From a virus, in the IMG/VR virus record IMGVR_UViG_3300037475_000064: a DNA stretch of 64,000 nt; one strand, 5' to 3'. Of this stretch, positions 11,830 to 39,653 are shown one piece after another. Made by a program: the position numbers and the translations under genes. Below the pieces are notes generated by a model that was not told the DNA's origin, made no database searches, and saw nothing but the letters and a program-made list of their open reading frames with translations. The number at the start of each line of letters is the position of its first letter. The first letter of the stretch is position 1.

Positions 11830-11875
11830 TGTGGGGGTCTCCATTGAGAGGGGATAAACTTCATTCGCGAGATCG

Positions 11876-11904: not shown

Positions 11905-11915
11905 GCGGAATTTTT

Positions 11916-12212: not shown

Positions 12213-12291
12213 GTCGCGCGCAGTCGGCCCCAGAACGTAGTCTCGACGAGGATAGCACTGTGAAGTCTTGCTTCTGTCGCGTATGGCTCCC

Positions 12292-12549: not shown

Positions 12550-12552
12550 GGT

Positions 12553-12822: not shown

Positions 12823-13189
12823 CGGCGTAGGCCCTCAGTTGATCTTGCAGCTTGGTGTTGATCTTTCCGGTTTTCATGAACTCATCGCAGAACGCAGCGC
12901 GGATTTCTTGTATGCGCGGAGGCGCGCTGTCTCGGGGCGGGCGGCCTCGGCCCCTAGACGTGTCTCGGGCCAGCGCAATCACTGGCTTGCCCCAGCGCGC
13001 TAGCCGCTCCGCTCTCGCGGCTTGACGCAGCGCTCGGGCCGCCGCCTGCCCGGGCTTAGGCTTGGGCACGTGGACCGGCTGACTGACTGCCCGCTCAAGG
13101 TCCCAGCCGTGCTCCAGCCGCATGTAGGCGCAGGCGTAGCTTATCCCCGCCGCGCGTGGCCGACCGTCGAGTTCGGGATGCTTAGACAT
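12644..13189 (-). CDS. putative DNA-binding protein (HTH-like N-terminus); 3' end uncertain
   Basis: N-terminal GISYACAYMRLEHGWDLERAV resembles NUMOD/HTH-type modules; C-terminal ~59 aa overlap the next gene and look low quality. Confidence 0.45.
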   Translation of the reverse strand: MSKHPELDGRPRAAGISYACAYMRLEHGWDLERAVSQPVHVPKPKPGQAAARALRQAARAERLARWGKPVIALARDTSRGRGRPPRDSAPPRIQEIRAAFCDEFMKTGKINTKLQDQLRAYADEHRSAKNNSRRVPVEQAAQCPSGRHSHMGNERGRSPDQTDVGSSREVAARIADYLRAG

Positions 13190-14669
13190 TGGTCCTCATC
13201 AAGAGATCGCGCAATCCACGACCGCTAAGGTCATCGGCAACCGTGGTCTTCCCATCGACGAGCGACCAGTTGCGATCATCGACCGTTCCCGGAGTTCGAA
13301 GACGGACGATAGTGACAGGATGCCCCCACTTCTCAGTCCCGCGTTCTTCTCCCTGATTGACGTGAATTGCGTTTGGAGTAGACGAGAAAAAGATGATTGC
13401 ATGCGCTCGGCTATAATCTTTTCCTTCGCCGCCGACAGCCGGATGCCCGACAAGCACGACGGGTCGATCACTGTTTTGAAACTGTAGTCGGATGGCCTCG
13501 CGCTTCGCCGTGGGGACGCCACCGTGCATTTCGAGGAACGGGATGCGCTCTTTCTTGAGCCGCCTGCAAACGCGAACGATGTCTTCTCGGTAGCGGCACC
13601 AAACGATAGAGTTCTCAGGAAACGTTCCTGTGATCTCATCAACGAGAGCGTCGTAGATCGGAGCCTCCGGGTCGATATCGATAATTTTGTCGTCATCTTT
13701 CACATACCCGTTGAGGATTTGCTGGAGCTTCTGCACTCTGGCCCCGCTGTCCTTGGCGCTGACCATGTCGTCGCCGATCTCGACGAGATGTCTGGAGACC
13801 ATCTCCAGATACGCTCGCCGCTGGACTTCACTCATAACAATGATCCGCTCGGTCCGCAATAGCTCAGGCATGCCCTCTACGTCGTCCCGGGTCACGACGC
13901 TCGACCACTGTGCCATTTTTGCCTGTAGCTCGCCAAGGTTCTTGTAGCCCTTGATCTTCCTATAGGCCCGACGCTTGGCGCGGTACGGCGGCGCGTTCGG
14001 GTCAACTTCCCAATCCGCGTATCGAGTGGCGAACTTCTCATAGGCGGGACCCGCGAACTCGGGACCGAGCGTGAGGTCGCCGAGAATTTTATAGATGGAA
14101 TAGGCGCGCAGGGGCGAGTTCAAGATCGCGGTGCCCGTCTCGACCGTGATGTACTTGGCGACCTTGCCGAGATTGCGCGCGAGCCGCGTGCGCTTCGCTC
14201 CGGCGCGACCGAAGTGATGGGCCTCGGAGATCACCAGCATGATCTTGCCATTGCACGCTTTGCGAAAGCGGCGGATGGCTTTGATGCAGTCCATATGCTG
14301 GAGCGCTTCCATATTGACGGTCAGATAGCGGATGCCGTCACGGTAGGCTTCGAACTTCTCCAGCGCAGCGATGCGGTCCCAGTCGGCGCGCTTCGGCGTC
14401 TCCCATCCGAAAGCCATATACTCGTTGATCGGCCACGACCAGCGCGGAATTTCGTTGAGGACCCAGTTGAGGTGAATGCCGTTTGGCGCGAGTACGACGA
14501 CGCCTTCGATGTTGCCATTGGCAAACTGATACTCGGCCTTGTCGATGACGGCTTTGGATTTGCCGGTCCGCATGGTCCAGAGCAGCGCGCGGCACCTATC
14601 GTCGCGGTGCTCGTCGAACTCTTTCTCTTGGTGTGCCCACGGCTTCTTAGCGTCGGAAGGGGTTGTCAC
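13182..14669 (-). CDS. SNF2/DEAD-like superfamily 2 helicase
   Basis: Walker A RTGKSKA, DEAH-like VISEAHHF, C-terminal helicase motif VGGEGKDYS...IIFFS. Confidence 0.8.
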   Translation of the reverse strand: MTTPSDAKKPWAHQEKEFDEHRDDRCRALLWTMRTGKSKAVIDKAEYQFANGNIEGVVVLAPNGIHLNWVLNEIPRWSWPINEYMAFGWETPKRADWDRIAALEKFEAYRDGIRYLTVNMEALQHMDCIKAIRRFRKACNGKIMLVISEAHHFGRAGAKRTRLARNLGKVAKYITVETGTAILNSPLRAYSIYKILGDLTLGPEFAGPAYEKFATRYADWEVDPNAPPYRAKRRAYRKIKGYKNLGELQAKMAQWSSVVTRDDVEGMPELLRTERIIVMSEVQRRAYLEMVSRHLVEIGDDMVSAKDSGARVQKLQQILNGYVKDDDKIIDIDPEAPIYDALVDEITGTFPENSIVWCRYREDIVRVCRRLKKERIPFLEMHGGVPTAKREAIRLQFQNSDRPVVLVGHPAVGGEGKDYSRAHAIIFFSSTPNAIHVNQGEERGTEKWGHPVTIVRLRTPGTVDDRNWSLVDGKTTVADDLSGRGLRDLLMRTNV

Positions 14670-14871
14670 GGTCCGCCCTCGCCGTCTTCGAGCAGTCCGG
14701 GCACAGATGGTCCGTCCCGCTCATTGTCCAGCCTTCTTCACGAAGCTCGACCCAACACTCGCGAAAATTCGAAACGTCGGCCCCGTCAGCTTTCGAGAAC
14801 TCATGCTGCTCGTCAAAGCAGACATCGCACTGGAAAACCAACTGCCCCCTAGATGGCCGCTCGAATGACAT
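14647..14871 (-). CDS. zinc-ribbon protein (74 aa)
   Basis: ATG at 14871 overlaps upstream TAA; CDVC...CPDC cysteine pairs; only the last 74 codons of track ORF 14647..15324 accepted. Confidence 0.5.
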   Translation of the reverse strand: MSFERPSRGQLVFQCDVCFDEQHEFSKADGADVSNFRECWVELREEGWTMSGTDHLCPDCSKTARADRDNPFRR

Positions 14872-15701
14872 TAGGCGCGCTCCCTCACTTCGAACTTGCC
14901 GTGTTCCCAGCGCCACTGCGCTCTCGGAAACACGCCCTGCAAGTTGTCTCTGATCATGATGCCCTCTTCGTCGCGGACGCGGAGACGCCCGACGCCGCCC
15001 TTGACATCGACTTCGATGAGATCGGAGGGCTTGCCCATGTCGCTGCCGCCCTCGTGGTAGATGTGCACGGGGATGCCCCACTCGTGATTGATGTACTGGT
15101 ACGCGCCGTAAACCTCTTTCGAGTAGGCGGCATACTGCATCAGGAATTGTTTCTCGGCCTCGTGCGGGGACCATGGCGTGATCTCGATACCGAGCGGCTC
15201 CAGCCGATGGCCCCAGTCGTTGCGGCGGGCCTTGTCCATCAACTGAGCGCGCTCGTCTACAATGATGCGGCTGTCGAGTTCGTCCTGTATCGGCAGCATC
15301 GGGAGGTCTTTCCAGCCGAGCCACTCACGGATCACATCATTGATCGCGTGATCCCAGACGCGGTATTGCGGCATGTACTGCTTGACCGGGCGCGGGATGT
15401 CCACAAGGTACGCCTCGGGCGCATCGTGCATCAGGATTTGCAGACAGTCGAGCGCCGAGCCGCCGTGCTTGCCCATCCACGTCGCCAGCAGGCAACAGTG
15501 CTGCGCGACGGAATAGAAAAACTGCACGTGGCCGGAGTAGCGGCACTGATTGCTCAGCGCGTGCGCGATATCGATCACCGATAGCGCGTCCATTGTTGGG
15601 GCGAGCGGCCAGAACGCGCGACCCGTGTAGGTCTCGATAAACGTGGCCGCCTTGTACTGTGTGTCGGTCTTCATCAAGACCGCAGGTTCCGTGGGGGACA
15701 T
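14871..15701 (-). CDS. HD-domain phosphohydrolase (YfbR-like nucleotidase)
   Basis: IAHALSNQCRYSGH ... LMHDAPEAYLVDIP (H...HD...D pattern). Confidence 0.7.
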   Translation of the reverse strand: MSPTEPAVLMKTDTQYKAATFIETYTGRAFWPLAPTMDALSVIDIAHALSNQCRYSGHVQFFYSVAQHCCLLATWMGKHGGSALDCLQILMHDAPEAYLVDIPRPVKQYMPQYRVWDHAINDVIREWLGWKDLPMLPIQDELDSRIIVDERAQLMDKARRNDWGHRLEPLGIEITPWSPHEAEKQFLMQYAAYSKEVYGAYQYINHEWGIPVHIYHEGGSDMGKPSDLIEVDVKGGVGRLRVRDEEGIMIRDNLQGVFPRAQWRWEHGKFEVRERA

Positions 15702-15710
15702 TGATCTCTC

Positions 15711-15929
15711 CTATAAGCCTTCAAGTTTGTCGTATGCCCGCAAAATCCGATTTGCGTACTCATACGCCCCCGTTGCATCCAAGATCAGACTGCTCAGCAC
15801 TCCGAACTCGTTGTGGTGCTGGATACGCATCTCATTGTCGTCGATGCTGTAGCCAATAGTATATTCCGTCGCAGCGATATCATCGCTGATCTCGACAGCG
15901 GCGTCGTCTTCGTGCTCGATTTCTGCCAT
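15711..15929 (-). CDS. hypothetical acidic protein
   Basis: 72-aa ORF. Confidence 0.5.
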   Translation of the reverse strand: MAEIEHEDDAAVEISDDIAATEYTIGYSIDDNEMRIQHHNEFGVLSSLILDATGAYEYANRILRAYDKLEGL

Positions 15930-15939
15930 TTAGTCCCCC

Positions 15940-18519
15940 TCATTTTCTTAGTCTTGGGCCGACCCAGCCTTCCGCCGTGATGGGCATGCCGGGAGCCCAG
16001 TCGGGCACCACGGACATGATTGCCTCAAAATCCTTGACAGCGCAAGTGCCTATAGGAGCCTCGGCAATAACTTCGTCGTGGATGGAAAGCAGCAAATCGA
16101 ACGGGTCTAGCTCGTCAACGCGAAGCATGGCTTCGGCGAGCAGATCGCGAGAGCTTGCTTGGTCATAATTTTCGACGAGAGAGCCGCCGTGAGTGCCGCA
16201 GCGTTTCCACTGTTTAGTGTATGTATCGCGGCCCATGAATGAAAGATGTGGAGAGACAAAACTCTCTGGCGGATCAGGCAACAGCCGCTTGTTCTGCTTC
16301 GCCGCCATCTTCTCGGCATGCCAACGAACTCGGTGCTGCGGCACGCTCTTCTTCGCGGGGAAGTTGACGGTAGTCGGTCGGCCCCGGGCGTTGAGCGCGG
16401 CGAAGCGATAGGTGACGCGCATGTTCACGCGCGGATAGAGATACGCCAGTAGGCGGCCCGAGGGCAGGCGACAGTGCAGGAAATTGCCGTCCGCGCTCAT
16501 GAAGTAGGAGACCGCGCCGTTGCCGAACTCGTCACCACCGCACCAATGCTCGCCACCTTCGATCACGGCAGCGATGGCCGCCTTCTCGGTAGAGCGCCAG
16601 AGCATCGGCACCTCGGGGTATTTCTCTTTGCGGTAGATACGGACCACCATCTGACAGAACTCGTCGTCGAGCCAAATACCCTCATCCATGTAGACCGTCG
16701 CTTGGAATTTCTCCCAGCCCATCGCGTAGCCGAGACCGAGGATGGCTTTCTTGCCGAGGTTACGCTCAGACTTGTCGGCCTTCGTGATCAGACGGCCATA
16801 GATGCCGCTCGCCATGTCGCAGTAGATGTCCTGCCCGGGCACGAACATCGCAAGCATCGCGGCGCAGCCGGAGAGCCACGCCAGCTTGCGTGCTTCGATG
16901 GCATTGAAGTCGGCGGCGTAGAGTTCTTTGTCCTCACTGGCGATCAGCGCACCGCGACAGGCTTTGGCCAATGCAACCATTGGCTCGCCCCACATGATGG
17001 TGACGAGTTCGCGGTCGAGCGACAGGATGTCGCGCCACGCGTCGCCCATTTCGTCGAGGCCGTCAGACGTAAGCTTCTTGTAGCCGCCGCCGTAGCCCCG
17101 GACGAAGTTGTGCGGCTGCACGCCCTTGCCTGACCAGCGTCCGGTACGGTCGGCCCCGTTATAGAGCATGATGTCGTGCAGGCGGCCATCCGGACACACG
17201 CTCTGCACCATGCGCTTGTACTTGGCGACCGATGAGCGGTTGACCTCCATGCAAATGCGGAGCGCCCGCTCGACCCGCGCGCCCTCTTCGCCCATGCTTT
17301 CCCACTTTGTCCGGGACGCGGGCAGCGCAGCCTCTTTAGCCTCGTCGCCTGCTTTGGTCGGGACGCCGTCGAGCGCGAAGCTGAGCGTATCGGCCTTGGT
17401 ATCGGCGAGGGGGTCCTGATCAAGCTCTACCAGCCGCCCATTGGCCCAACGCAGTAGGGCTGCACGTTGGCTCCCCTTCTCGACCGCACCGCCAGTGATC
17501 TCCGTAAGCTCGCCATTGAGCCGTTCGGCCTCCAGCGCGGCCAGCTTGAGGGCTTCCTCCGCAGCGGTCTTGTCTAGCCGGATGCCCCGCAAGTTCATGC
17601 GGAAATCCATCAGCCAATACTTCCGCTCTTGCTCGGGCATCTCCGGGCAAAAGTTCGACAGGCCGCGCTCGGCCCGCACGTCGCCCTTGCAGTATTCCCA
17701 GTTGCTACGGTGCTCGGCCTCTTCCTCGCAGAACTTAACTCCGTCTTCGGCGTCGCCGACGTGGCGCTCATAAGTCGCGAGCTTGGGCTTCAACTTGATC
17801 GCTGGTGGCTCCGTTAGCCATTCGTACTGGCCCTCTTCGGGATGGCCGAGGATGCCTTTGCGCTTCGCCAGTTCCTCATTGAGGAATTTACGGATCGAGC
17901 CCATCGCCGCAGGCTCTCCCGAATAGTAGTCCGGGAAGTAATTGTTGACGATCATCCGCTGTATTTCCTCGGCGTCTTCCGTGGTGAACGGCTCAGGGAA
18001 GAGCTTGAACAGTTCGGCCTTGAACAGATCGCGAGGCGTCGCCCCCGGCGTCAGCGCCTTGGGCGGTCGATTACGCATTGGCTTCGACAGCTTGTTGATG
18101 AGCCGCTTGCCGTCCGCGATCTTGTGATCGGGCAGGCCTAGTGCGCGGATGGCATCTTCAAGGCCACGGGGCAGCGACAGGCACGAAGCTTTGGCCGCCG
18201 AGCAGAACATCTGCTCAGGCTTTAGCTCGACATCGAACTCGGGAAATTCCCGGCGGAGCGTCTCGTTCCAGATGTTGAACTCAAAGCCTGCGTTGTGCGC
18301 CTCGACCGGCTCGCCGCTGCGGATGCGCTCGATAAGCTCATCCGGGCGCGGGCTCTTCCTGATCCACGGATGGTCGCGGTGCCAGAGATGTATCTCGTCT
18401 TCCTGATCGTAGGCCCACGCAAGACAGAGCGCCTGCGAGCTTGCATCCATGGCATAGCGCCGCTGTCCCCACTTGATGAGGTCGGCGGCGGACCGAGTTT
18501 CGAAGTCGAGTGTGATCAT
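15940..18519 (-). CDS. family A DNA polymerase with 3'-5' exonuclease domain
   Basis: Exo I LDFETRS; motif A DFNAIEARKLAW; motif B RNLGKKAILGLGYAMG; motif C SIHDEV; ATG at 18519 overlaps upstream stop (ATGA). Confidence 0.9.
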   Translation of the reverse strand: MITLDFETRSAADLIKWGQRRYAMDASSQALCLAWAYDQEDEIHLWHRDHPWIRKSPRPDELIERIRSGEPVEAHNAGFEFNIWNETLRREFPEFDVELKPEQMFCSAAKASCLSLPRGLEDAIRALGLPDHKIADGKRLINKLSKPMRNRPPKALTPGATPRDLFKAELFKLFPEPFTTEDAEEIQRMIVNNYFPDYYSGEPAAMGSIRKFLNEELAKRKGILGHPEEGQYEWLTEPPAIKLKPKLATYERHVGDAEDGVKFCEEEAEHRSNWEYCKGDVRAERGLSNFCPEMPEQERKYWLMDFRMNLRGIRLDKTAAEEALKLAALEAERLNGELTEITGGAVEKGSQRAALLRWANGRLVELDQDPLADTKADTLSFALDGVPTKAGDEAKEAALPASRTKWESMGEEGARVERALRICMEVNRSSVAKYKRMVQSVCPDGRLHDIMLYNGADRTGRWSGKGVQPHNFVRGYGGGYKKLTSDGLDEMGDAWRDILSLDRELVTIMWGEPMVALAKACRGALIASEDKELYAADFNAIEARKLAWLSGCAAMLAMFVPGQDIYCDMASGIYGRLITKADKSERNLGKKAILGLGYAMGWEKFQATVYMDEGIWLDDEFCQMVVRIYRKEKYPEVPMLWRSTEKAAIAAVIEGGEHWCGGDEFGNGAVSYFMSADGNFLHCRLPSGRLLAYLYPRVNMRVTYRFAALNARGRPTTVNFPAKKSVPQHRVRWHAEKMAAKQNKRLLPDPPESFVSPHLSFMGRDTYTKQWKRCGTHGGSLVENYDQASSRDLLAEAMLRVDELDPFDLLLSIHDEVIAEAPIGTCAVKDFEAIMSVVPDWAPGMPITAEGWVGPRLRK

Positions 18520-18764
18520 GCGAGATTGCGGGCGTCCCGAATTTCGACCGGCCCGGGAGTGCTGGACATCACGCGGAGCGTTGGCGTGAGCAGCGAGCGC
18601 AGTGCCTTCGAGAGGCATTCGCGCGCATCGCCGACATTCTTCACCGCGATGTGGCGCTCATGCTCGGAGCAGGCCGGGTTCGTCGCGACGACTTGCGCAA
18701 GCGTCAGGGCCTCAATGGCCTCCGTGACGAGTTCGATCTTAGTCTCTTGCTGAGGATTTGACAT
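18516..18764 (-). CDS. hypothetical protein
   Basis: 82-aa ORF coupled to the polymerase gene. Confidence 0.5.
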   Translation of the reverse strand: MSNPQQETKIELVTEAIEALTLAQVVATNPACSEHERHIAVKNVGDARECLSKALRSLLTPTLRVMSSTPGPVEIRDARNLA

Positions 18765-18831
18765 CAGGCCGGGGCTCCATGTTGACTATTTTGGCAGTGA
18801 GCACGCGGCCCTTGATGCTGTCAATATGGTT

Positions 18832-18863
18832 GGGGCCGATATCGTTTTACCGATACCGGCCCC
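18832..18863 (-). terminator. strong hairpin downstream of SSB gene (terminator-like, no U-tract)
   Basis: GGGGCCGATATCG / CGATACCGGCCCC, 13-bp stem with one mismatch. Confidence 0.4.
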
Positions 18864-18902
18864 GACGCTGGCGGCTGAGTGGCTTATTTCCCTGTGCCAG
18901 CG

Positions 18903-19532
18903 TTAGCCCAGATCGTCCTCGTCGCCGCTAGCGAGATCGTCATCCTCGGAGAAGCCCTCCGCAGGATCGTCACCGAAATCGTCCTCAGCAGACGTGAAGC
19001 CTTCGAAGCTCTCATCGTCGCCGACCTTCTGGAGGTTGCCGAGACCGATGGCCAGACCCTTGCCGATGTTGTTGAAGGGGTAAGGGTTGACCGACGCGCG
19101 AGCCCAGCAACCGGCGTAGAACTCTTCCGAGTTCTCGCTTGTGATTGCGTTGCCGCTCACGTCGAGGATTTGCGGGCGGCGCTTCGAGTTGGCCATGGAG
19201 AAGAACACCATGTCCGGGTCGCCGTAGCCCTGATAGTCCTTCTCACTGCCCTTGTGAAACGGAATTTTGAAGGACCGATCTTCCTTCATTTCCTTGATGG
19301 ACTTTTTGAAGAACTCTTTGCAGACCTCCGCGAGCTTGGTGCGGATGGCTTCCCACTTCGCCTTGTCGGCGTCAGTGAATTGCTTCGGATAGAAGAGACC
19401 GGTCAACGAGTACCGAGGGGTCCCGTTGTTGTAGCTGGCCTTCTCGAAGACTTGGGGGAAGCTGACACGGAATTTCGGGGTCAGCAGGCGGGAGCCCTTT
19501 TTGCCGGGCGCGGCTGTAGCGGTGCTTGCCAT
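18903..19532 (-). CDS. T7 gp2.5-like ssDNA-binding protein (DUF2815-like)
   Basis: 209 aa; N-terminal RLLTPKFRVSFPQVF pattern, highly acidic tail ...SEDDDLASGDEDDLG; sits next to polymerase. Confidence 0.65.
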   Translation of the reverse strand: MASTATAAPGKKGSRLLTPKFRVSFPQVFEKASYNNGTPRYSLTGLFYPKQFTDADKAKWEAIRTKLAEVCKEFFKKSIKEMKEDRSFKIPFHKGSEKDYQGYGDPDMVFFSMANSKRRPQILDVSGNAITSENSEEFYAGCWARASVNPYPFNNIGKGLAIGLGNLQKVGDDESFEGFTSAEDDFGDDPAEGFSEDDDLASGDEDDLG

Positions 19533-19587
19533 GGTGTCCTGTCCTTTCGATTTGATGTGATGTGATAATTGGACTTGGCAGTTGCGG

Positions 19588-19616
19588 GTATTAACGAAAA
19601 ATTAACGATGTGTCAA
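19588..19616 (-). promoter_or_regulatory. sigma70-like promoter (TTGACA-17-TAATAC) for the SSB gene
   Basis: Near-consensus hexamers on the minus strand, about 55 nt upstream of the 19532 start. Confidence 0.6.
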
Positions 19617-20272
19617 GCGATAAATCCATGCCACGCAAAGAAAACCGCAGCGCCGAGAAGCGCGCCCGGGACGACATCCACGACATAATGCTGCTTCGTC
19701 TTGAGCGCGGAGATCGCGATCAGCAGCGGGAACGCCGCACAGATCACGCCCATGGTCGGCCAGTTCTTGCCGATGGTCAGATCAACCATCATGGCCACGC
19801 TGACGTGCATGCTCGGCAGCGAGTTGCGGAGCTTGTCGTAGCTCCATACGAGGTTGAGCATCCGCATTGAACGTGGCCAAAGCCGCTCCGCGATCTTCCG
19901 ATTAACGGACCCATAGTTTGAGCCGCGCACAAACCCGACCGGCATAAGTTCGCGCCACGTCGCCGGAATGGCGACCGGCCAAAGTACGAAGAACGTCACC
20001 TGTACCGCGAGCAGCGTGAGGAAGCAGCCGACGCAATAGGCGTATTCGCGCCACGTCGGCACGGACAGCGCCGCAAGCAGGATCATCGGGTAGTAGAGCC
20101 CGGAGTAAATCCACACCCATCTAGGATCGAAGTTGACCTTGCGGTCCCACGCGGTTTCGAAGTAGCGCGCGTCGAAGAACGTTTGCCGCTGAGCCCAGAA
20201 ATAAAACTGGTAGCCGCCGACGATGAGAACGACCGTGATGAATAGCTCAAGGATGCGATCAAACAGTTCCAT
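19613..20272 (-). CDS. PAP2-superfamily membrane enzyme (PAP2_3 / IPC-synthase-like)
   Basis: 219 aa, about 6 TM helices; LPSMH (C2-like) and KQHYVVDVVPG (C3-like) motifs. Confidence 0.6.
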   Translation of the reverse strand: MELFDRILELFITVVLIVGGYQFYFWAQRQTFFDARYFETAWDRKVNFDPRWVWIYSGLYYPMILLAALSVPTWREYAYCVGCFLTLLAVQVTFFVLWPVAIPATWRELMPVGFVRGSNYGSVNRKIAERLWPRSMRMLNLVWSYDKLRNSLPSMHVSVAMMVDLTIGKNWPTMGVICAAFPLLIAISALKTKQHYVVDVVPGALLGAAVFFAWHGFIA

Positions 20273-20682: not shown

Positions 20683-21284
20683 CAGTTCGCGCTCGGATGC
20701 CTGACCAGACAATAGACAGCGCTGATTTCTCCCGCATGCACGGCCATGAAAATCCATGACACGTCAGTCGGGTTGTCGAGGTCGTCCTCGTAGTTGTTGA
20801 CGTAGAGGTCGGGGACGATGACCTCGGTCCCGGTCGCGATGTATTCGCGCGTCGTGCCGTCTGGATAGAGCTTCGCGGAGCCGTCGCCGATCACGGCGGT
20901 CCACGTTCCGGTCGGCGTCCCGTTCGCGTCCTTGTTCTGCCAATACCTTTCAACCGGATAGCCGTCACCCTTGCCGCAGCACGAGCTATCAGGCATGTCT
21001 GGCCGCATCAAGCGCTCAAACCATTGCACCGTTTTGCTGTTGGGGTCGAAGCCGTGGTCCATCGCGGGCGCGGGCGTCGTGAAGAGCCAAAACAGACACG
21101 CGAGCACGACGGCGACGAACACTATCACCTTCGCGCTGTTCGGCAGAACATCGGGCTCGGGCTCATACGTGGCGCGGAGCATATCGAACCGCGCCTGATC
21201 TCGACCGTCCGGCTCCGGGTAGGCCGGGCCGTGCTCATCGTGACCGATCTTCGGATAGCCTACGATGTAGTTCGGGCTACCCAT
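20682..21284 (-). CDS. single-pass membrane protein with periplasmic domain
   Basis: TM VIVFVAVVLACLFWLF; extracytoplasmic domain with CCGKGDGYP. Confidence 0.55.
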   Translation of the reverse strand: MGSPNYIVGYPKIGHDEHGPAYPEPDGRDQARFDMLRATYEPEPDVLPNSAKVIVFVAVVLACLFWLFTTPAPAMDHGFDPNSKTVQWFERLMRPDMPDSSCCGKGDGYPVERYWQNKDANGTPTGTWTAVIGDGSAKLYPDGTTREYIATGTEVIVPDLYVNNYEDDLDNPTDVSWIFMAVHAGEISAVYCLVRHPSAN

Positions 21285-21615
21285 GATGATCGTCCCCGTG
21301 GGCGTGCTCGTTGATGGTTACCGATTTCTGCGGCGCGACGTAGGGCAGTAACGCCTTCTCGACCGGCTCGACGACGTAGACGCGCATGGGCGGTTGAGTG
21401 GTGACGCAGAGCCCGATCTCGATAACGCCGCCCGCGTTGAGCGCCGCAAGCTCGCCCGGGCTCGGTTTCCACGTGCTGATCAGTTCGACGATTTGACGGT
21501 CGCCGAACGCTTCGGCGCGCACTTGCAGATCGCCGCACGGACCATCCGCTTCGGCGTCCCAATTCTTCGGCGCTTGAAAATTGTGTGTAGCTCCGCGTGT
21601 CACTGTCGGTTGCAC
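21277..21615 (-). CDS. hypothetical protein
   Basis: 112 aa, GTG start. Confidence 0.5.
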   Translation of the reverse strand: MQPTVTRGATHNFQAPKNWDAEADGPCGDLQVRAEAFGDRQIVELISTWKPSPGELAALNAGGVIEIGLCVTTQPPMRVYVVEPVEKALLPYVAPQKSVTINEHAHGDDHHG

Positions 21616-27180: not shown

Positions 27181-27424
27181 GAGGTCGGTCTCCAGTGAGG
27201 TTGAAAAGAAGTTTGACGGCGCGATCAAGTCTTGTCGAAAGTCGTTTCGCCCGGATGCTCTTGATCACGTCGTTGTAGCGAGACTGGGCGAGACGTTTCT
27301 TCTCGGGATGCGCCACGTGATAATCACGGTGGCGGAGCGCAGTCCGTTTTCGGCTGCACTCATGCGAACACGTTTTCCAATTTTTGTGCGAGGCGAACTC
27401 CGCGCCGCAGGATGAGCATATCAC
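27092..27424 (-). CDS. zinc-ribbon protein, first gene of leftward block (3' end uncertain)
   Basis: GTG start; CSSCG...CSHEC; last ~30 codons overlap the next gene. Confidence 0.4.
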   Translation of the reverse strand: MICSSCGAEFASHKNWKTCSHECSRKRTALRHRDYHVAHPEKKRLAQSRYNDVIKSIRAKRLSTRLDRAVKLLFNLTGDRPHDHYRTIIRRKTRGRTDRDGSRDTRPHVG

Positions 27425-27552
27425 GTGGAGGCACCAATTTCAGACACCACATGCGGTATACCGAGCCGCGAAAATTGTCAAGAGCCTCAAAATGCTTGCA
27501 TTCGTTAACTTTTGATGGTAGTGACCATGTCCCAATCCCCCGGAAAGGTCCT

Positions 27553-29916
27553 ATGATTAGACAGCGTACCCTTGACCTCGCGTGGGAATATGTAGAGCGG
27601 CACCTGTATCGCCGCTATCTTTTTCCGATCAAGCCCGGCGCAAAATTTCCGCCGCTGATCAAGAACAATCTCGAAGACGCATCGTGTGATCCTGAGCAGC
27701 TTCGCGCGTGGGAGGCGAAATGGCCCGGATGTAATTGGGGCGTCGCGCACCGCAAATCGGAGTTGATGGTCGCCGACATTGACGTGAACAAGCTCAAAGG
27801 CAAAGTCGGTCAGGCCACCTTCGATGGCCTCGACCTGATCTACGGTTGGCCGCCGACCGAGATGACCACGACGCCGTCCGGCGGCTGGCACATGATATAC
27901 GAAGGTTGGGCCAACGAGAACCACCCCGCTCACATCATGGCGCTCGGCGAGAACGGCATCGGCAAGGACATCGACAGCCCGAACTATACGCTGATCCCGG
28001 GCTGCACGTTTGACGATGGCACGTCCTACGTCGGCAACGACGCCGAAGCCGTCAAGTGCCCAGAATGGATATACGACACCATCAAGAGTGCGAAGACCAA
28101 GAGCCGCGTCACGGACGCAGGCGAGGTCGTCATTGAACTCGACCAGCAAGCCAACATCGAACTCGCGATTGACTTCCTCCAGAATGACGCCGCGCCATCC
28201 ATCCAAGGCTCAGGCGGCGACTTCAATCTGCTCAAGGCCGCCTACTACCTCAAGGACATCGGTATCTCGCAAGGGCTCGGCGCAGAACTCTTGAACGAAT
28301 ACTTCAATCCGCGTTGCGAGCCCGCGTGGGACGTGGCCGATCTCGAAAAGAAGATGGCGGGCGCGTACAGCTACGCCAATCTCTCGAAGGTAGGCGGAAA
28401 GACAGCCGAGGCCGACTTCGCCGACGAGCCGCCAGAAGCCCCAATAGAGCCGATGGGCATCTGGGACAACGAGACAAAGTCCTACAAGAAGGACCCGAAG
28501 CGGCTCAAGGGTCAGGTCAAAGCGCGAGCCAAAGTGCGTAAGCGTGAAGAGGGAAAGCTCGACGACCCGAAACGGGCGAAGACAAAGGCCAACGTCCTCG
28601 ACCAGTTCGTATGGGTCGTCGGCATGGAGCGGTTCATCAACATCGTGGACCCGGTCGGAAACGATGAACGCGACATCTGGAAACGCTCGCAGTTCGACAG
28701 CGAGTTCAACAAGATTTGGTTTCCCGCACCGAAGCGCGGCAGTGCATCGGATTTCCTGCTCCGCGTCCCCAAGGGCGGCTTGCAAAGCTTCTACCGTGTC
28801 GCGTTCAAGCCCGGGCAGCCGCGTTCGCTCGACGGCGGGCTGGCGTTCAATATGTACCGCGCGCCCGATGTGGTGCCTGTCGAGGGCGACCTCGCGTGGT
28901 GGGATGCTCATCTCGAATACCTGTTCCCGGAAGAGACCTATCGAAACCATCTCTTGGATTGGATGGGTTGGCTTGTGCAGAACCTCGACAAGAAACCGAA
29001 GCACGCGCTGATCATTCAGGGCGAGGTCAACGGCACGGGCAAGAGCTTCATCGGCAAGGTGCTCGCCCGCATTCTGCACGAGGCGAACGTCTCCATCGTT
29101 CCACAGAACGGGCTCTCGGGCCGGTTCAACTCGTGGGCTCTCCAGTGCAAGCTCATCCTGATCGAAGAGTTGCGCGCCTCTGACAAGCGCGCGGTCAAGG
29201 AAGCTCTGCACGACATTATCACCGAGGACCGCATCAACGTCGAAAAGAAAGGCGTCGATAGCATGATGGTCGATACCTGTTTCGGCGTCATGGCCTTCAC
29301 CAACGACGACGCCGCGCTCGACCTCGACAACACCGACCGCCGCTACCTCGTGATCCGCACCGACCGCACTGAGGCCGAGGCGCTTGCGCTGTCGGCGCAG
29401 GGCTACTTCATCCGGCTCTTCGCCAAGCTTGAGGACCCGACCGCGATGGCCGCCGTCGCCTACGCGCTCATGAACCGCGATCTCAAGGGCTACAACGGGC
29501 AGGCCGCCGCACCGAAGACCGAGGCAAAGGGTGGCATGAAGAAAGCCGCGATGAGCGACCTTGAGCATCACCTCGACGAGAACCGGGGCGAGTGGCCGCT
29601 CTCCAGCCGCCTCGTGACCATTGAGGACGTGATCTCATCGCTACCGAAACGTATCGAGCAGAAGGGCTACCGGCTGCACGGTACGATCAAGAAGTTCCTG
29701 TTGACCGACCTCGACGGCATTGACCTCGGCCAGTGCACGACGCCGAGTGGCAAGAAACCGCGCCTGTACGCCATCAACGGCGCGGGCAACATCCTGTCGG
29801 CCCAGCCGCGCACCGTAGCGGGCAAAGTCTACGAGGACGACAAGGTCCGGGCTGGCAAGAACCAACCGCTCGAAGACATCGACGACGCCGCCAGTGAGTT
29901 CGACGGAAAAGAATAG
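27553..29916 (+). CDS. bifunctional prim-pol primase / D5-type SF3 helicase
   Basis: N-terminal prim-pol motifs (VADIDV, GGWHMIY), central D5_N-like region, P-loop GEVNGTGKSF; ATG at 27553 with GGAAAGG RBS. Confidence 0.85.
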   Translation: MIRQRTLDLAWEYVERHLYRRYLFPIKPGAKFPPLIKNNLEDASCDPEQLRAWEAKWPGCNWGVAHRKSELMVADIDVNKLKGKVGQATFDGLDLIYGWPPTEMTTTPSGGWHMIYEGWANENHPAHIMALGENGIGKDIDSPNYTLIPGCTFDDGTSYVGNDAEAVKCPEWIYDTIKSAKTKSRVTDAGEVVIELDQQANIELAIDFLQNDAAPSIQGSGGDFNLLKAAYYLKDIGISQGLGAELLNEYFNPRCEPAWDVADLEKKMAGAYSYANLSKVGGKTAEADFADEPPEAPIEPMGIWDNETKSYKKDPKRLKGQVKARAKVRKREEGKLDDPKRAKTKANVLDQFVWVVGMERFINIVDPVGNDERDIWKRSQFDSEFNKIWFPAPKRGSASDFLLRVPKGGLQSFYRVAFKPGQPRSLDGGLAFNMYRAPDVVPVEGDLAWWDAHLEYLFPEETYRNHLLDWMGWLVQNLDKKPKHALIIQGEVNGTGKSFIGKVLARILHEANVSIVPQNGLSGRFNSWALQCKLILIEELRASDKRAVKEALHDIITEDRINVEKKGVDSMMVDTCFGVMAFTNDDAALDLDNTDRRYLVIRTDRTEAEALALSAQGYFIRLFAKLEDPTAMAAVAYALMNRDLKGYNGQAAAPKTEAKGGMKKAAMSDLEHHLDENRGEWPLSSRLVTIEDVISSLPKRIEQKGYRLHGTIKKFLLTDLDGIDLGQCTTPSGKKPRLYAINGAGNILSAQPRTVAGKVYEDDKVRAGKNQPLEDIDDAASEFDGKE

Positions 29917-30160: not shown

Positions 30161-30541
30161 CTAGGAGGCGATGGCGGCCCGCTTCCGGTCTATCAGCGAG
30201 ACCACTTTAGGGTCCGCTGGCAGCGCGCAGATGCGCCGGATCATGTTCTCATCGATGATGGCTTGCCTTAGCCACGCTCTGATCTCGTCAGTGTCACCGT
30301 TGACCACTCTGGCGAGTGTTGCACGTTGCTTGAGACGCCTGAGAGCTTCGAGCCTGTTACGACCGAAGCCCAGTTGGATGCCGAGACCCGGAGAGGGTCG
30401 GCACAGAACGATGGGTTGCAGAACGCCGACGACCGGGATGCTGATCATCAGTTGCCTTACGACTTCCTCGTCGGGCTCCCGACCGTCCACGACCTTGATC
30501 CGGTCCACGACGATCTGTTCCGACGTTAGTGTCACTGTCAT
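30161..30541 (-). CDS. ParB N-terminal (ParB/Srx fold) domain protein
   Basis: VGVLQPIVL ... LGFGRNRLEALRRL resembles ParB box II (GxxRxxA). Confidence 0.6.
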   Translation of the reverse strand: MTVTLTSEQIVVDRIKVVDGREPDEEVVRQLMISIPVVGVLQPIVLCRPSPGLGIQLGFGRNRLEALRRLKQRATLARVVNGDTDEIRAWLRQAIIDENMIRRICALPADPKVVSLIDRKRAAIAS

Positions 30542-31800: not shown

Positions 31801-31914
31801 GGGGCGATTGTTAATCGTGGATGGGTAGCGTGTGGTTGACCAGTCTTAGCGATGGTTCTGAATGTCAGGACGGACCGTGATCAGACGCGGGGGCAGTACC
31901 CGCCGCCTCCACCA
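31801..31914 (+). ncRNA. ssrA: tmRNA acceptor piece (3' tRNA-like half ending CCA); 5' boundary uncertain
   Basis: T arm GCGGG-GGCAGTA-CCCGC (31887-31903), acceptor 3' strand CGCCTCC (31904-31910), ACCA (31911-31914). Confidence 0.7.
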
Positions 31915-32075
31915 CGGACAGCGCGAAGCGGTATGGATACCGTGCATCGAATATGCGACGCCTCTTCGTAGGGTCTCGCGCTGTCTCTGATGGGGGCGAA
32001 CTAGGATCGATGGGCACGACGAAGTCAGGAAGTGAACCCGGCATGATACCGCCGACATCGGGTCAAAAACTAAAT

Positions 32076-32120
32076 GTGAACGACAACGTTCCCATGACCG
32101 AAATGCGCCTCGCGGCGTAA
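32076..32120 (+). other. tmRNA tag reading frame VNDNVPMTEMRLAA-stop
   Basis: GUG AAC GAC AAC GUU CCC AUG ACC GAA AUG CGC CUC GCG GCG UAA, preceded by CAAAAACUAAAU (compare the remembered E. coli AAAAAAUAGUC-GCA). Confidence 0.6.
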
Positions 32121-32159
32121 GCGGTTGGGGTTAGTCCACCTAGCAACAGAATGGCTCGT

Positions 32160-32194
32160 ATCGCCCGGCGCGCAAGCTCCGGGCGATTTGCGTT
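32160..32194 (+). terminator. intrinsic terminator of the tmRNA unit
   Basis: ATCGCCCGG / CCGGGCGAT stem then TTTGCGTT; overlaps the stop of the convergent HNH gene. Confidence 0.65.
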
Positions 32195-37028: not shown

Positions 37029-37277
37029 TCACTTCCCCAACCATAGGACAATCGTGCGCCGCCTTGGCGCGTATCGACCAGTCGCCTCGGGGTTGCCAGC
37101 GATGCGCCATACGAGGCGTGTGAAATCCGGGTCAAGCTTGCGCAGGTCTCGACATAGATCGGTTTTGTGTAGTCGCAGTGAGCGCGGCAATAGACCGCTG
37201 CATCCGACAACCCAGCCGCCCGGTTGTAGATCGCGGAGCAACTCTTTCGGCGTTCCGTTTTTCCAATGATCGGTCAT
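37029..37277 (-). CDS. hypothetical protein
   Basis: 82 aa, ATGA-coupled to upstream gene. Confidence 0.45.
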   Translation of the reverse strand: MTDHWKNGTPKELLRDLQPGGWVVGCSGLLPRSLRLHKTDLCRDLRKLDPDFTRLVWRIAGNPEATGRYAPRRRTIVLWLGK

Positions 37278-37735
37278 GGGTCAAGGTCCAGTCCTGAAAA
37301 TCTGTTGCGTTCCTCTTCCGGCTCGGGCTGTCGCGCTCCGTCCCGGACGATGTCTTCTTCGCGCTCTGTTCGTCGCGCCTCGGCTTTGATCCGCGTCGCT
37401 TCCTCGCGTGTCCAGTCGCCACCGATGAATTTGCGCGCCTCGCTCATCAGTGCGTTCTGCTCGCAATACGGACAGCCGTCGCCGACGATATAGTCGTGAG
37501 TGCATCTCAGCGGTTGAACTTCGAACTTGCTCGTCGCCGTGACCAGCGCCGGGCGCAACCCCGTCAGTTGCTCGGGGCGCTCACGGTCGAAGTTGATCTC
37601 GCTGACGAGCATCGCGATGCGGCGAGCTTCGTCCTTGCTCAGGTTCAAGACGCCAACGCTCCACGGCACGCCGCCGTTGTTGGCGGTCGGCGTCTTGAAG
37701 AGGGATATCTCGGCCTTCGGTTGCTTCGAAGCCAT
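37274..37735 (-). CDS. hypothetical protein, first gene of the leftward early operon
   Basis: 153 aa; CxxxxxxxxxxCPYC cysteines, acidic tail. Confidence 0.55.
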   Translation of the reverse strand: MASKQPKAEISLFKTPTANNGGVPWSVGVLNLSKDEARRIAMLVSEINFDRERPEQLTGLRPALVTATSKFEVQPLRCTHDYIVGDGCPYCEQNALMSEARKFIGGDWTREEATRIKAEARRTEREEDIVRDGARQPEPEEERNRFSGLDLDP

Positions 37736-37797
37736 ATTGATCTCAATTCCGGGTCTGTTGGCCGCTGTCGGTACGCTGCTTTTGGGGTGATGTCAAT

Positions 37798-37830
37798 GGT
37801 GAGAAAAGAGGTGAGAAATTTGGTGAGAAA
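37798..37830 (+). repeat. iterons: 3 x GGTGAGAAA at 12-bp spacing
   Basis: Copies at 37798, 37810 and 37822; immediately upstream (minus sense) of a TTGACA at 37791-37796. Confidence 0.8.
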
Positions 37831-38032
37831 TTGGGCGTTTGGGGTCGATTTTCACTGTTTTTGGGTCGGATTTCATTTTCGCCGACCCGCATAAACATTG
37901 GGTTTCTTGCATCGCGGAGGCCCGAAAACAGGGTCTTTTTCGGTCGCTAATCGGTCGTCCGCTGGGGGCCGCGATAAACCTTAACTCTTGCTAACGTGCT
38001 CTGATCAAAGCTCAATTCGGCGCGCGGCCCAA

Positions 38033-38121
38033 TTTCTCACCTCTTTTCATTTCTCACCTATTTCTCACCAAATTTCTCATCTTATGTCGTTGATAACACA
38101 ACAATTTCTCACCTTCTCACC
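38033..38121 (-). repeat. iterons: 5-6 copies of the same 9-mer in opposite orientation (TTTCTCACC)
   Basis: Copies at 38033, 38050, 38061, 38073 (degenerate), 38105 and 38114. Confidence 0.8.
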
Positions 38122-38174
38122 TCTTTTACATATTCTTTAGTGAGTATGGTGTGTGTATAGGAGTTGACGAATTT

Positions 38175-38191
38175 GGTGAGAAGGTGAGAAA
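38175..38191 (+). repeat. iterons: 2 adjacent GGTGAGAA(A) copies
   Basis: GGTGAGAAGGTGAGAAA. Confidence 0.7.
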
Positions 38192-38220
38192 TCGGGTCAC
38201 TTTTGGGGCCTTTGGCTCAT

Positions 38221-38590
38221 GCAAGGGGTAGCTGCTATTAGGGTTAATTTAGAGTTAAGATAAACCCTGCATCGTGGCGTTTTAACCTTAACAGTTAAGA
38301 TTAATGCGCACGAAGGCCCCTGTGGCGGCTATTAACCCTATCAATTAACCTTAATTTAGGGGTTGTAGGCCCCTAAAGGCTTGATATTATTAACTTTTAT
38401 TCTTTACGTTAATCGCTTAGCCCTGCGTATAGCGCATGCACTCATGCACATGCATCCATATCCCCTTGATATCATTACACTATTGTCGTGATGTTCCATA
38501 CTATATGTTATGCGAATTGACGTTAACCTTAATCACTATGCATTAACCTAAATTGTTTACGTTAATCGCTATTAGTAGTGCTCGAAGCAT
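38221..38590. repeat. AT-rich repeat region (TTAACCTTAA x3, TTTACGTTAATCGCT x2, palindromes)
   Basis: TTAACCTTAA at 38282, 38345 and 38523; 15-mer at 38403 and 38556; GCTATTAGGGTTAA / TTAACCCTAT inverted; ATGCA triplet at about 38435-38452; clearly lower GC than its flanks. Confidence 0.75.
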
Positions 38591-38810
38591 TGACCCCTCC
38601 ACAAGATGGTGCTACCCTAGCCTCGCAGAGATAGGCCGTAGGACCCAGATTTTGCATCGAAGCGCCAGACGCAATGTCCCCCTGCTCGCACACACCGCCT
38701 CGATTTTGAACCGAAATTTAGAAAAATAAAAATATGAGGATTAAGAAAAACTCTTGCCTCCCCAAATTTTTCGTGCTAGGGCAACCTGACAATTTCACAA
38801 GGTCCCCAAC

Positions 38811-39653
38811 GTGACGCGCCTGAGCACATCATCCCCGACGAGGTTCTTCACCGGCAAGCCATGCGTGCGCGGCCACATCGCCGAGCGCTTGATCAGCAAC
38901 AACGGCTGCGTCGTCTGTCAGAACGAACGGAAGGCGAAGCGCGGCCAGTCGCCGGACTATCGCGCCCGCCGCAACGCCCGGCTGAAACGCAAGCGCGATG
39001 AGCGGCGGGAGCCGAGGATATGTGCGGTTTGCTTCGGGGCCTTCGACGCGCAAGAGGGCAACCGCTTCGCGGCTAGGACCTGTTCGCCCGAGTGCGGCGA
39101 GACGTTCTATGCGCGCAACCGCAAAAAGCAGCCGGACAAAGAATGCGATCACTGCTTCGCGATGTTCGCGTCGCGCAACCCGGCGCAGCGTGCGTGCTCG
39201 CCCCAGTGCAGGGCCGCGCTCGAAGCCGAGCAGCGGGCGGCTCGGACCAAGCCGTGCGTCAAATGCGAGACAGTGTTCAACCTGAGCAGCGACGACAACG
39301 GGCGCAATGGCTTTTGCTCAGACGAGTGCCGGGGTGAGGCCCGTGCAGAGCGATGCGCCTCCGCGTACCAGCGGCTCCGCATCCACAAGCCCGAGGTCAT
39401 CGTCGCGAGGAAAGCCCGATACCGACTTAACCAGCCCGAGGCGTTCATGCGTACTCGGAAAACCATCAACAACCGTCGTGTCGCTGGCGAGACCGCCGCG
39501 TATGAGGTCGCGAAGCAAATGATCCCTGACGCGCTGGCCGGTCTTCCCGGCTATCGTGCCAAGGTTCGCGCGTCTGTCGAGTTCTTGCGTTCGATAGGTA
39601 TGAACCCCAGCAAGCCAACGGAGAAAACTGATGTCCCCCTTCGATCAACTTAA
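38811..39653 (+). CDS. multi-zinc-ribbon protein, first gene of the rightward operon
   Basis: GTG start; FTGKPCVRGH...NGCVVC plus four further C-x2-C/CS-x-EC units, basic linkers. Confidence 0.6.
   Translation: MTRLSTSSPTRFFTGKPCVRGHIAERLISNNGCVVCQNERKAKRGQSPDYRARRNARLKRKRDERREPRICAVCFGAFDAQEGNRFAARTCSPECGETFYARNRKKQPDKECDHCFAMFASRNPAQRACSPQCRAALEAEQRAARTKPCVKCETVFNLSSDDNGRNGFCSDECRGEARAERCASAYQRLRIHKPEVIVARKARYRLNQPEAFMRTRKTINNRRVAGETAAYEVAKQMIPDALAGLPGYRAKVRASVEFLRSIGMNPSKPTEKTDVPLRST

Follow-up and report, generated by a model that had tools for sequence, protein, structure and literature searches.

A conserved TTAA-rich region between divergent gene arms of an uncultured phage family, with candidate boxes for a CtrA/SciP-type host regulator

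The DNA analysed here is a 64,000-nt stretch (the window) of the virus record IMGVR_UViG_3300037475_000064, being 64 kb of a metagenomic contig that measures 84,146 bp (Logan SRR12917118_1645), and the element under study is the AT-rich, repeat-laden intergenic region that separates its two gene arms. The window encodes phage functions that include a family A DNA polymerase, a Prim-Pol/SF3 primase-helicase, helicases and exonucleases. Genes called from the G + C (GC) content of codon positions lie nearly all on the minus strand to the left of 37735, and all on the plus strand to the right of 38811. Between the arms is the only large gap of the window, 1,075 nt of non-coding DNA (37736-38810), bordered by a minus-strand gene of 153 aa (37274-37735) and a plus-strand gene of 280 aa (38811-39653). 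A preliminary description of this DNA had drawn attention to a non-coding island of about 590 nt. The island is indeed non-coding, but it is only the right-hand two thirds of the gap.

The low GC content noted in that description is borne out. While the window has 60% GC overall, the fraction falls to 0.34-0.46 over 38000-38600, and the lowest 200-nt value of the whole window (0.35, ∼5.6 standard deviations under the mean of 0.60) is at 38374-38573. A profile of duplex stability places all eight of the least stable 40-bp segments of the window within 38045-38754, including 38121-38160 and 38715-38754. The cumulative AT skew has its minimum at 38582; because AT skew tracks gene orientation this is not independent evidence for an origin of replication. 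The GC skew is weak, and uninformative for the gap.

The right-hand part of the gap is rich in short repeats containing TTAA. The sequence TTAACCTTAA occurs at 38282, 38345 and 38523, with no further copies in the 64 kb, and the 15-mer TTTACGTTAATCGCT occurs at 38403 and 38556. There are also a palindrome CTTAACAGTTAAG, an inverted pair GCTATTA-GGGTTAA / GCTATTA-ACCCTAT, a cluster of ATGCA and a hairpin (Table 1). These repeats had been listed before, and all are present where they had been placed. Their significance was assessed by 500 dinucleotide-preserving shuffles of 38221-38810 alone. None of the shuffles contained a 10-mer occurring three times, eight repeated 10-mers or a repeated 15-mer. 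Neither did any reach the natural number of TTAA (16, with 5.9 expected) or of TTAAC/GTTAA (13, with 1.9 expected). The complete gap, making up 1.7% of the window, holds 17 of the 54 TTAA sequences and all three TTAA(C/G)(C/G)TTAA boxes.

The gap is retained in related phages. Homologues of the two flanking proteins in a collection of 5.8 billion proteins comprise near-identical copies, one relative of the right-hand gene with 52% identity and one weak partial match, and through them the near-identical contigs L002-L004 and L126 were found, together with the 52%-identical L005. Further lineages were recovered using conserved DNA words and an exonuclease anchor (L006, which is the same as L127, and L134, L142, L086, L144, L145, L146/147, L148 and L162). 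The related contigs are 14.5 to 127 kb in length, and their proteins are syntenic and 35-80% identical. The gap is also syntenic; it can be aligned end to end with those of L127 and L134, and its layout is shared by L142, L086, L144, L145, L146, L148, L162 and L005. About ten metagenomic lineages retain an architecture of paired boxes with conserved sigma-70-type promoters downstream and an A-tract block. Parts of the gap (a 39-nt block and the A-tract block) are better conserved than the surrounding coding DNA, and the genes directly beside the gap vary among lineages. BLASTN searches with the gap, and with 20 kb around it, gave no matches to cultured phages. This is genuine cis-acting DNA of functional importance, and its conservation is strong.

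When nine lineages are pooled, the TTAAC family resolves into a 10-bp box, TTAAC(C/G)TTAA, present in 3-8 copies per gap at the syntenic place. The sequence of the box is invariant among lineages whose proteins are only 35-70% identical. The boxes are typically paired at an offset of 13 bp, in direct or inverted orientation (for example ATTAACCTTAACTATTAAGGTTAAT, which occurs twice in L127), and in two such pairs the second half, in degenerate form, is the 15-mer TTTACGTTAATCGCT. The start-to-start spacings of TTAA pairs up to 26 bp apart in the nine lineages are 6 bp (57 pairs), 7 bp (19), 13 bp (43) and 19 bp (31). The canonical arrangement TTAA-N7-TTAA is present once in the window gap (at 38244) and in none of eight relatives; the block TAATTTAGAGTTA within 38238-38258 is conserved, but the canonical dyad that it contains in the window is not kept. 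The hairpin has an equivalent in the relatives, where a GC hairpin stands at the same place with another stem sequence, such as CCCCCTGTAGGGGG in L127 and L144. The end of the 23-bp composite, that is a pair of boxes, lies ∼13-35 nt upstream of the equivalent of the -35 element of P_R1 in the relatives. The 10-bp unit includes TTAACC, the half-box of the host cell-cycle regulator CtrA, and matches the motif RTTAACCATR at 9 of 10 positions, that being the motif obtained for SciP by chromatin immunoprecipitation sequencing (PMC4083442).

Within this series of boxes the position 38317-38320 is an indel hot spot, since at that point L005 has an extra 40-bp box unit (89-129) and L127 has a deletion. 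The assembly of the Ga0070714 soil metagenome breaks inside the gap, where L003 ends and L126 begins at 38317-38320.

To the right of the boxes are two conserved predicted promoters directed toward the rightward arm, P_R1 and P_R2, called solely on the basis of conservation across lineages. At the position of P_R1 the lineages have a TTGAC -35 element, with a -10 element of GTGCTA type in most; in the relatives P_R2 reads TTGACA-N17/18-TAG(G/A)nn. A further promoter-like sequence to their left, TTGATATCA, is common to L142 and L086 in the same place. The leader that follows P_R1 is conserved in sequence, with neither a conserved fold nor a conserved reading frame visible in the alignments. RNAalifold gave no supported fold on 4 or 10 lineages, and one-base indels across the lineages rule out a conserved open reading frame (ORF) between P_R1 and P_R2. 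An Rfam scan of the gap gave chance-level microRNA-like matches only, caused by the inverted repeat described below. Preceding P_R2, the 47-nt A-tract block is identical in L127 and L134 except for a one-base gap, and its core GAAAAATAAAAAT is kept with small variations in ten aligned sequences; it is a candidate UP element of P_R2. A scan of the region for terminators found one weak terminator-like site, fewer than in shuffled sequences. In L005 the rightward promoter is duplicated (588-611 and 948-971; GCCCTTGACA..TTAGTTTA), and the two copies are separated by an extra ∼360 bp of coding-like GC content, a stretch that the window does not have.

Table 1. Features of the divergent gap and marker genes of the window, listed from left to right within each group
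Position	Strand	Feature	Remark
37736..38810	.	Entire intergenic control region between the divergent arms	Gap of greatest length and lowest GC; switch of gene orientation
37768..37796	-	Candidate leftward promoter TTGACA (37791-37796)-N17-TACCGA	Predicted from sequence; not called by consensus scanner
37798..37833	-	Three TTTCTCACC units in tandem	Immediately upstream of leftward -35; period 12 bp
37876..37914	.	39-nt block TTTTCGCCGACCCGCATAAACATTGGGTTTCTTGCATCG	100% identical in L127/L134
38030..38125	+	Array of six TTTCTCACC-type units	One unit degenerate
38104..38192	.	Perfect 18-nt inverted repeat ATTTCTCACCTTCTCACC / GGTGAGAAGGTGAGAAAT	Flanks 53-nt AT-rich spacer 38122-38174
38238..38258	.	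TTAGGGTTAATTTAGAGTTAAG	Sole perfect TTAA-N7-TTAA of the gap (38244-38258)
38282..38305	.	Composite TTAA box TTAACCTTAAC-AG-TTAAGATTAAT	TTAA offsets 0, 6, 13, 19
38332..38355	.	Composite TTAA box TTAACCCTATCAATTAACCTTAAT	
38355..38377	.	Hairpin TTTAGGGG-ttgtagg-CCCCTAAA	
38390..38413	.	Degenerate composite box ending in TTTACGTTAAT	First copy of the 15-mer
38466..38494	+	Putative promoter-like site TTGATA-N17-TGATGT	
38517..38570	.	Promoter-proximal boxes TTGACGTTAACCTTAAT and ATTAACCTAAATTGTTTACGTTAATCGCT	The latter is the second copy of the 15-mer
38590..38618	+	Conserved predicted rightward promoter P_R1, TTGACC-N17-TACCCT	
38634..38703	+	Conserved unstructured leader	Patches GCCGTAGGACCC, ATG.CCCC..GC, CACACAC
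38704..38750	+	A-tract block TTTTGAACCGAAATTTAGAAAAATAAAAATATGAGGATTAAGAAAAA	Least stable duplex of the window, stability z = 4.7
38754..38782	+	Conserved predicted rightward promoter P_R2, TTGCCT-N17-TAGGGC	
38800	+	Ribosome-binding site AAGG	GTG start at 38811
27412-29916	+	Prim-Pol/SF3 primase-helicase gene	NrS-1/D5 type
31804-32161	+	Alpha-type two-piece transfer-messenger RNA (tmRNA) gene	Rfam RF01849, 122 bits
56487		Large terminase gene	
58630		Portal protein gene	

The paired box is found well outside this family. The 23-bp composite TTAACCTTAA-N3-TTAAGGTTAA occurs in 14 IMG/VR contigs, compared with one match in 596 Gb of bacterial genomes, and half of the 14 viral carriers belong to the window family. 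(A scan of IMG/VR with a loose pattern gave mostly chance matches in AT-rich phages and was discarded.) The contigs L046, L165, L157, L158, L159, L161 and L163, which are fragments, have no or marginal protein similarity to the window family and contain 2-34 boxes each. Two of these, L157 and L046, were searched against cultured phages, and are related to Mesorhizobium phage Cp1R7A-A1 and the PhiCbK-like Caulobacter phages. In L157 nearly every gene is preceded by a cassette that comprises the composite, ∼27 nt, the sequence TTAACCAT, ∼14 nt, CTTGCA, 17 nt, GATATG and then a ribosome-binding site; TTAACCAT is a CtrA half-site (PMC3692519). A degenerate form of this cassette stands before the small genes of phage Cp1R7A-A1.

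Cassettes of this form (23-bp TTAA composite, GC-rich spacer, TTAACCAT, -35 and -10) stand in front of nearly all small genes in contigs that are unrelated to the window family, namely L157 (2000-8300), L046 (4400-8900), L159 and L166 (Cp1R7A-A1, record 6025-19768), with box densities of 26 in 8.9 kb for L046 and 34 in 14.8 kb for L159. The sole bacterial composite is intergenic (L155 5740-5790, in the metagenome-assembled genome JBCCLK010000013.1), and has an extra TTAACC alongside. It lies downstream of what we take to be a glmM-like housekeeping gene and upstream of what is presumably the gene of an Omp25/RopB-like outer-membrane protein, judged from its N-terminus only.

In the remainder of the window the canonical dyad is placed between genes. 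All ten sites that differ from TTAA-N7-TTAA by one mismatch or less are intergenic; the placement is suggestive rather than strong evidence, because 57% of all TTAA sequences are intergenic too. The near-dyad sites include 2111, 9186, 10906, 40413, 49089 and 53527, and several are upstream of genes of the replication arm. The earlier observation that CGTTAAT occurs twice in the SSB promoter is correct for the minus strand (19590 and 19601). Jointly the two copies make up a perfect TTAA-N7-TTAA (19591-19605) that overlaps the spacer and -10 element of this promoter, TTGACA-N17-TAATAC.

The region belongs to a published kind, the TTAA-rich gap of phages of Alphaproteobacteria, as a variant with non-canonical box geometry: it has the large divergent gap and the concentration of TTAA, and its sites do not follow the canonical TTAA-N7-TTAA dyad. 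One example is the 87-kb Brevundimonas phage vB_BsubS-Delta, where a 1,312-bp gap between divergent modules contains 30 TTAA sequences; canonical CtrA sites account for 12 of these (Mascolo et al. 2022, PMC9437464). Probes made from the gap of Delta and from one Cp1R7A-A1 promoter are shifted by phosphorylated CtrA (CtrA~P); in a ctrA(ts) host the Delta promoter adjacent to the gap is de-repressed, so that CtrA represses it, while the Cp1R7A-A1 promoter is activated by CtrA (PMC9437464). Binding and regulation by CtrA have been demonstrated for Delta, PhiCbK and Cp1R7A-A1 only, in Delta and Cp1R7A-A1 at individual promoter regions (PMC9437464). By comparison with these systems, the island in the window probably consists of boxes for a host regulator of the CtrA/SciP type placed on early promoters, a reading to which we assign a probability of roughly 55%.

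If so, the gap would be the central control region for early transcription, with a replication and early arm read leftward, and a second early arm followed by the structural genes read rightward. The paired 10-bp boxes stand upstream of P_R1 and of P_R2 with its UP-like A-tract block, and would be recognised by a DNA-binding factor that numerous unrelated alphaproteobacterial phages have in common. The boxes precede many separate genes of phages that are not related to each other, and this argues for the site of a transcription factor to which every one of these phages has access. The most economical choice is a host protein, and the best candidate would be CtrA, possibly acting with its partner SciP. 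In this way early phage transcription may be tied to the state of the host cell, as proposed for Delta under the term 'lytic deferment', with a gap-region signature named 'LPEG' (PMC9437464). What we infer here is the identity of the binding protein, whether it activates or represses, and the activity of the promoter-like sequences.

Several observations weigh against this assignment. Bacterial genomes contain almost no copies of the composite, an odd pattern for the favoured site of a host regulator. The canonical 11-bp distance of TTAA-N7-TTAA occurs once among the TTAA pairs of the nine lineages, and a dimer of the OmpR family is expected to need a spacing of ∼11 bp, making the binding of CtrA in its usual mode doubtful. 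The DNA binding of SciP itself is disputed in the literature (PMC4083442). A consensus scanner called no sigma-70 promoter in the region. There may be a small phage repressor that is too divergent for BLAST or Pfam.

Some of these points would be explained if the TTAA boxes were operators for a small repressor or activator made by the phage, such as a ribbon-helix-helix or helix-turn-helix protein. A pseudo-palindromic 10-bp unit, repeated in tandem at 13 bp and used in either orientation, would suit such proteins, and the missing canonical CtrA spacing and the near absence of the composite from bacterial genomes point the same way. Yet no DNA-binding family was found among the 106 ORFs of the window, and the only window protein common to Delta and MMDA13 (a Sphingomonas phage with a similar gap, described below) is small (21277-21615) and shows no sign of DNA binding. 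Moreover, in the fragments compared no proteins could be detected that are common to the carriers of the box, and in L157 and Cp1R7A-A1 the composite stands together with the exact CtrA half-site TTAACCAT. A phage-encoded reader is a rather unlikely alternative to a host regulator.

The left half of the gap contains a second and stronger repeat family, TTTCTCACC/GGTGAGAAA, that is absent from the preliminary description, whose island starts at 38221 and excludes it. Of the 11 copies of TTCTCACC in the window, 10 are within 37798-38190. Starting from the left-hand gene, the candidate leftward promoter is directly followed by tandem units of this family, of which L127 and L134 have four at the equivalent position, likewise with a 12-bp period. 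The 39-nt block TTTTCGCCGACCCGCATAAACATTGGGTTTCTTGCATCG comes next. In L142 it is 95% identical over 41 nt, even though the neighbouring proteins are 35-60% identical, and no promoter, RNA family or ORF accounts for this conservation. Further to the right is the six-unit array, for which the relatives have arrays at the same place with other sequences (TTCTCAG, ACTCAG, CTGAGTAA and TTCTCGG), and then the inverted repeat, with two units in each arm (38104-38121 and 38175-38192). The spacer between the arms is one of the segments of the window where the duplex is least stable. The arms stay complementary despite lineage-specific sequence in L148 (19/19), L145 (14/14) and L086 (85% of 20 nt); they are degenerate or absent in L127, L144, L146 and L142. 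The two repeat families are thus opposite in behaviour: the sequence of the TTTCTCACC family shifts from lineage to lineage while its arrangement is kept, whereas the TTAAC box is invariant.

This difference bears upon the possibility of an origin of replication. The preliminary description had favoured initiator iterons, formed by the TTAAC-type repeats, beside an AT-rich unwinding element. The second element of that proposal is found, in that this is AT-rich, repeat-laden cis-acting DNA with the lowest duplex stability of the window, and the AT-skew minimum, the switch of strand and the multiple phased repeats are also in keeping with it. The first element is improbable. Iterons normally co-vary with their initiator, as the TTTCTCACC family appears to do, while the TTAAC box is constant across the lineages, and the same boxes are dispersed before many genes in unrelated phages. 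The AT skew simply follows gene orientation. Nor is there an initiator gene adjacent to the gap: the flanking proteins have no Pfam or PHROG function and no replication domains, the left-flank proteins of eight lineages are not a single family and have no DNA-binding domain, the flanking genes are not conserved and the primase-helicase gene is 8 kb away. The TTAAC boxes are best described as an operator and not as a set of iterons, because they are invariant between lineages, are dispersed before genes in unrelated phages, match the CtrA half-box and the SciP motif, and have equivalents that are bound by CtrA.

The form expected of phased, initiator-specific repeats is instead matched by the lineage-specific TTTCTCACC family, and an origin at 38030-38195, to the left of the island as first described, is possible, if tentative; it would be compatible with host-regulator boxes in the right half. 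A phage initiator, for example the Prim-Pol/SF3 helicase, would bind the TTTCTCACC units, and the inverted double units would load two helicase rings head to head onto the 53-nt spacer. The adjacent TTAA boxes would gate firing, as do CtrA sites in the Caulobacter origin. Such an arrangement would fit the confinement of all but one of the unit copies to the gap, the 18-nt arms that remain complementary despite sequence change in three lineages, a specificity that depends on lineage with a constant layout, the presence in the same half of the gap of inverted repeats in MMDA13 and long direct repeats in Delta, and a phage that encodes a primase-helicase of NrS-1/D5 type. On the other hand, the same pattern fits operators of a lineage-specific repressor equally well, and the arms are lost or degenerate in four lineages. 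Between the window and L134 the C-terminus of the primase-helicase shows no greater divergence than the remainder of the protein, and so gives no clue to iteron specificity. Inspection for DnaA and IHF sites, by eye only, recognised no DnaA boxes. The inverted repeat is the best candidate in the gap for either an origin or an operator. To our knowledge the origin of this phage group has not been mapped so far.

The two halves of the gap might also be parts of a single device. The element uniting these phages would then be the 10-bp unit and its 23-bp pair, acting as a phage-specific 'super-site' that is read in a non-canonical manner by SciP, by CtrA in another mode, or by some other factor, and placed beside a lineage-specific origin with inverted iterons. 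The gap could in that case act as a cell-cycle-gated origin plus early switch, comparable to that of Caulobacter, or as a decoy that titrates the host regulator. We consider this combination doubtful.

Two other functions had been suggested for the island. The first is a genome terminus, taken here to include sites of packaging (cos or pac) and the edge of a terminal repeat. This would agree with repeat-rich non-coding DNA, with the assembly break of one sample at ∼38317-38320, with the Delta assembly, which is linearised inside its gap, and with PhiCbK-like phages, whose clusters of CtrA sites are in the terminal repeats (PMC9437464). Against it, the gap is internal both in the 84-kb contig and in a relative of 93.8 kb (at ∼68 kb, calculated from locus coordinates), and the large terminase gene is found 17.7 kb downstream of it. 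Restriction digestion shows that Delta is circularly permuted, with no fixed ends in its gap (PMC9437464), and the contig breaks are in short assemblies and have no common position. A terminus here is consequently very unlikely. The gap stands at the exact middle of the 84-kb contig, which is taken as coincidence given its position in the 93.8-kb relative. The second suggestion, a parS-like centromere for three ParB-fold proteins, has even less in its favour, although arrays of short repeats in both orientations do resemble some centromeres. The only 16-mer of the window within four mismatches of parS is at 59197, outside the gap. The three proteins were not recovered; a single ParB_N match (30161-30541, E = 0.0027) is below the Pfam cut-off, and no ParA or ParB was found at threshold among the 106 window ORFs. 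There is no par operon and there are no plasmid-prophage functions, and in other phages the boxes precede many genes. A centromere can be set aside as barely credible.

The closest cultured relatives are distant, namely Roseobacter phage RDJL3 and siphophages like NP1 and YuA, with 43-46% identity in the polymerase and portal proteins. The alpha-type tmRNA gene points to an alphaproteobacterial host for this metagenomic sequence, and together with RDJL3 among the relatives it may hint at a host bearing CtrA. This gene is embedded among minus-strand genes. A scan for tRNA genes found none. The primase-helicase is the main plus-strand gene of the minus-strand arm, and the Delta primase gene (DELTA_56) is equally odd in its orientation.

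The window is also depleted in particular restriction sites. GANTC, the CcrM/HinfI site, was counted in positions 1-64000 and in L127, L142, L144, L146, L148 and L162. There is one copy in the window (3612), compared with ∼230 expected from base composition, none in five relatives, where 44-76 are expected for loci of 12-20 kb, and likewise none in L162. Delta has 48 (299 expected) and MMDA13 has 108 (168 expected). Of the 64 palindromic hexamers 24 are absent from the window, against 3% of non-palindromic hexamers; CCGCGG and CGGCCG number 0 compared with 47 expected, and CAGCTG, CTGCAG and CTCGAG 0 compared with 21. The missing hexamers point to strong avoidance of restriction sites.

TTAA-packed gaps have so far come from a handful of cultured phages of Alphaproteobacteria, where they were proposed to let the phage read CtrA. 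The present family adds about ten lineages of uncultured soil phages, in which the region is conserved more strongly than the surrounding genes. What the family has in common with Delta, MMDA13 and the contigs like Cp1R7A-A1 is the 10-bp box with its 13-bp pairing and not TTAA-N7-TTAA, which sharpens the targets for binding assays, and suggests that searches with the canonical dyad would undercount such phages. The inverted repeats provide a concrete candidate origin for the group.

The P4 alpha protein and SaPI Rep bind iteron sets of the kind seen in the left half of the gap, and the loading of helicase outlined above is likened to the origins of P4, SaPI and papovaviruses. The gap resembles P4 ori/crr and SaPI ori in having short repeats in two orientations around an AT-rich segment, and in the fusion of primase to an SF3 helicase. 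The likeness covers the TTTCTCACC family and not the TTAAC repeats, and 8 kb separate the gap from the helicase gene. At Cori, the chromosomal origin of Caulobacter, which is AT-rich, CtrA boxes beside the initiator sites silence initiation (cited in part in PMC9437464). Cori, an AT-rich region in a GC-rich genome, offers a functional analogy for a combined origin and CtrA-controlled switch; it uses canonical TTAA-N7-TTAA and DnaA boxes, neither of which is a feature of the window gap (for DnaA boxes, by eye only). Cp1R7A-A1 and the PhiCbK-like phages have the composite TTAACC...TTAAGG before sigma-70-type promoters, as does the window, and in L157 and Cp1R7A-A1 it is accompanied by TTAACCAT. 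Their boxes are distributed among numerous small transcription units within or close to the terminal repeats, whereas those of the window are gathered in one internal gap, and the phages are unrelated.

The closest parallels are MMDA13 and Delta. The phage vB_StuS_MMDA13 of Sphingomonas (MN820898) has a 1,186-bp low-GC region with TGCGTTAACCAT repeats between two arms (Marmo et al. 2020, PMC7472734). Like the window it has opposed gene arms, a gap of low GC in which several promoters are predicted, TTAACC-type repeats beside the rightward arm that include two copies of TTAACCTTAA along with TTAAGGTTAA units, and inverted repeats in the half adjoining the primase-helicase arm. MMDA13 is smaller (63.7 kb) and shares essentially one small protein with the window, and its main repeat is TGCGTTAACCAT in 3-4 copies, compared with the paired 10-bp boxes of the window family. 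Delta and the window family both have a gap of ∼1.1-1.3 kb between divergent modules in a siphophage-type genome of 84-94 kb, a Pol I replication arm, an oppositely oriented primase gene, and an extended series of small genes. In both gaps TTAA is strongly concentrated, identical TTAACCTTAA / TTAAGGTTAA units being included, and further direct repeats stand in the opposite half along with AT-rich DNA. Yet the two phages have few core proteins in common, at 30-37% identity, and no DNA similarity beyond the boxes, and their gaps are at different distances from the terminase gene (3 kb in Delta, 17.7 kb in the window). The units of Delta are 17 bp apart, generating six canonical TTAA-N7-TTAA between units, while those of the window family are 13 bp apart, with canonical sites essentially absent. 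Since the spacings differ in this way, the element common to Delta, MMDA13 and the window family is the 10-bp unit itself.

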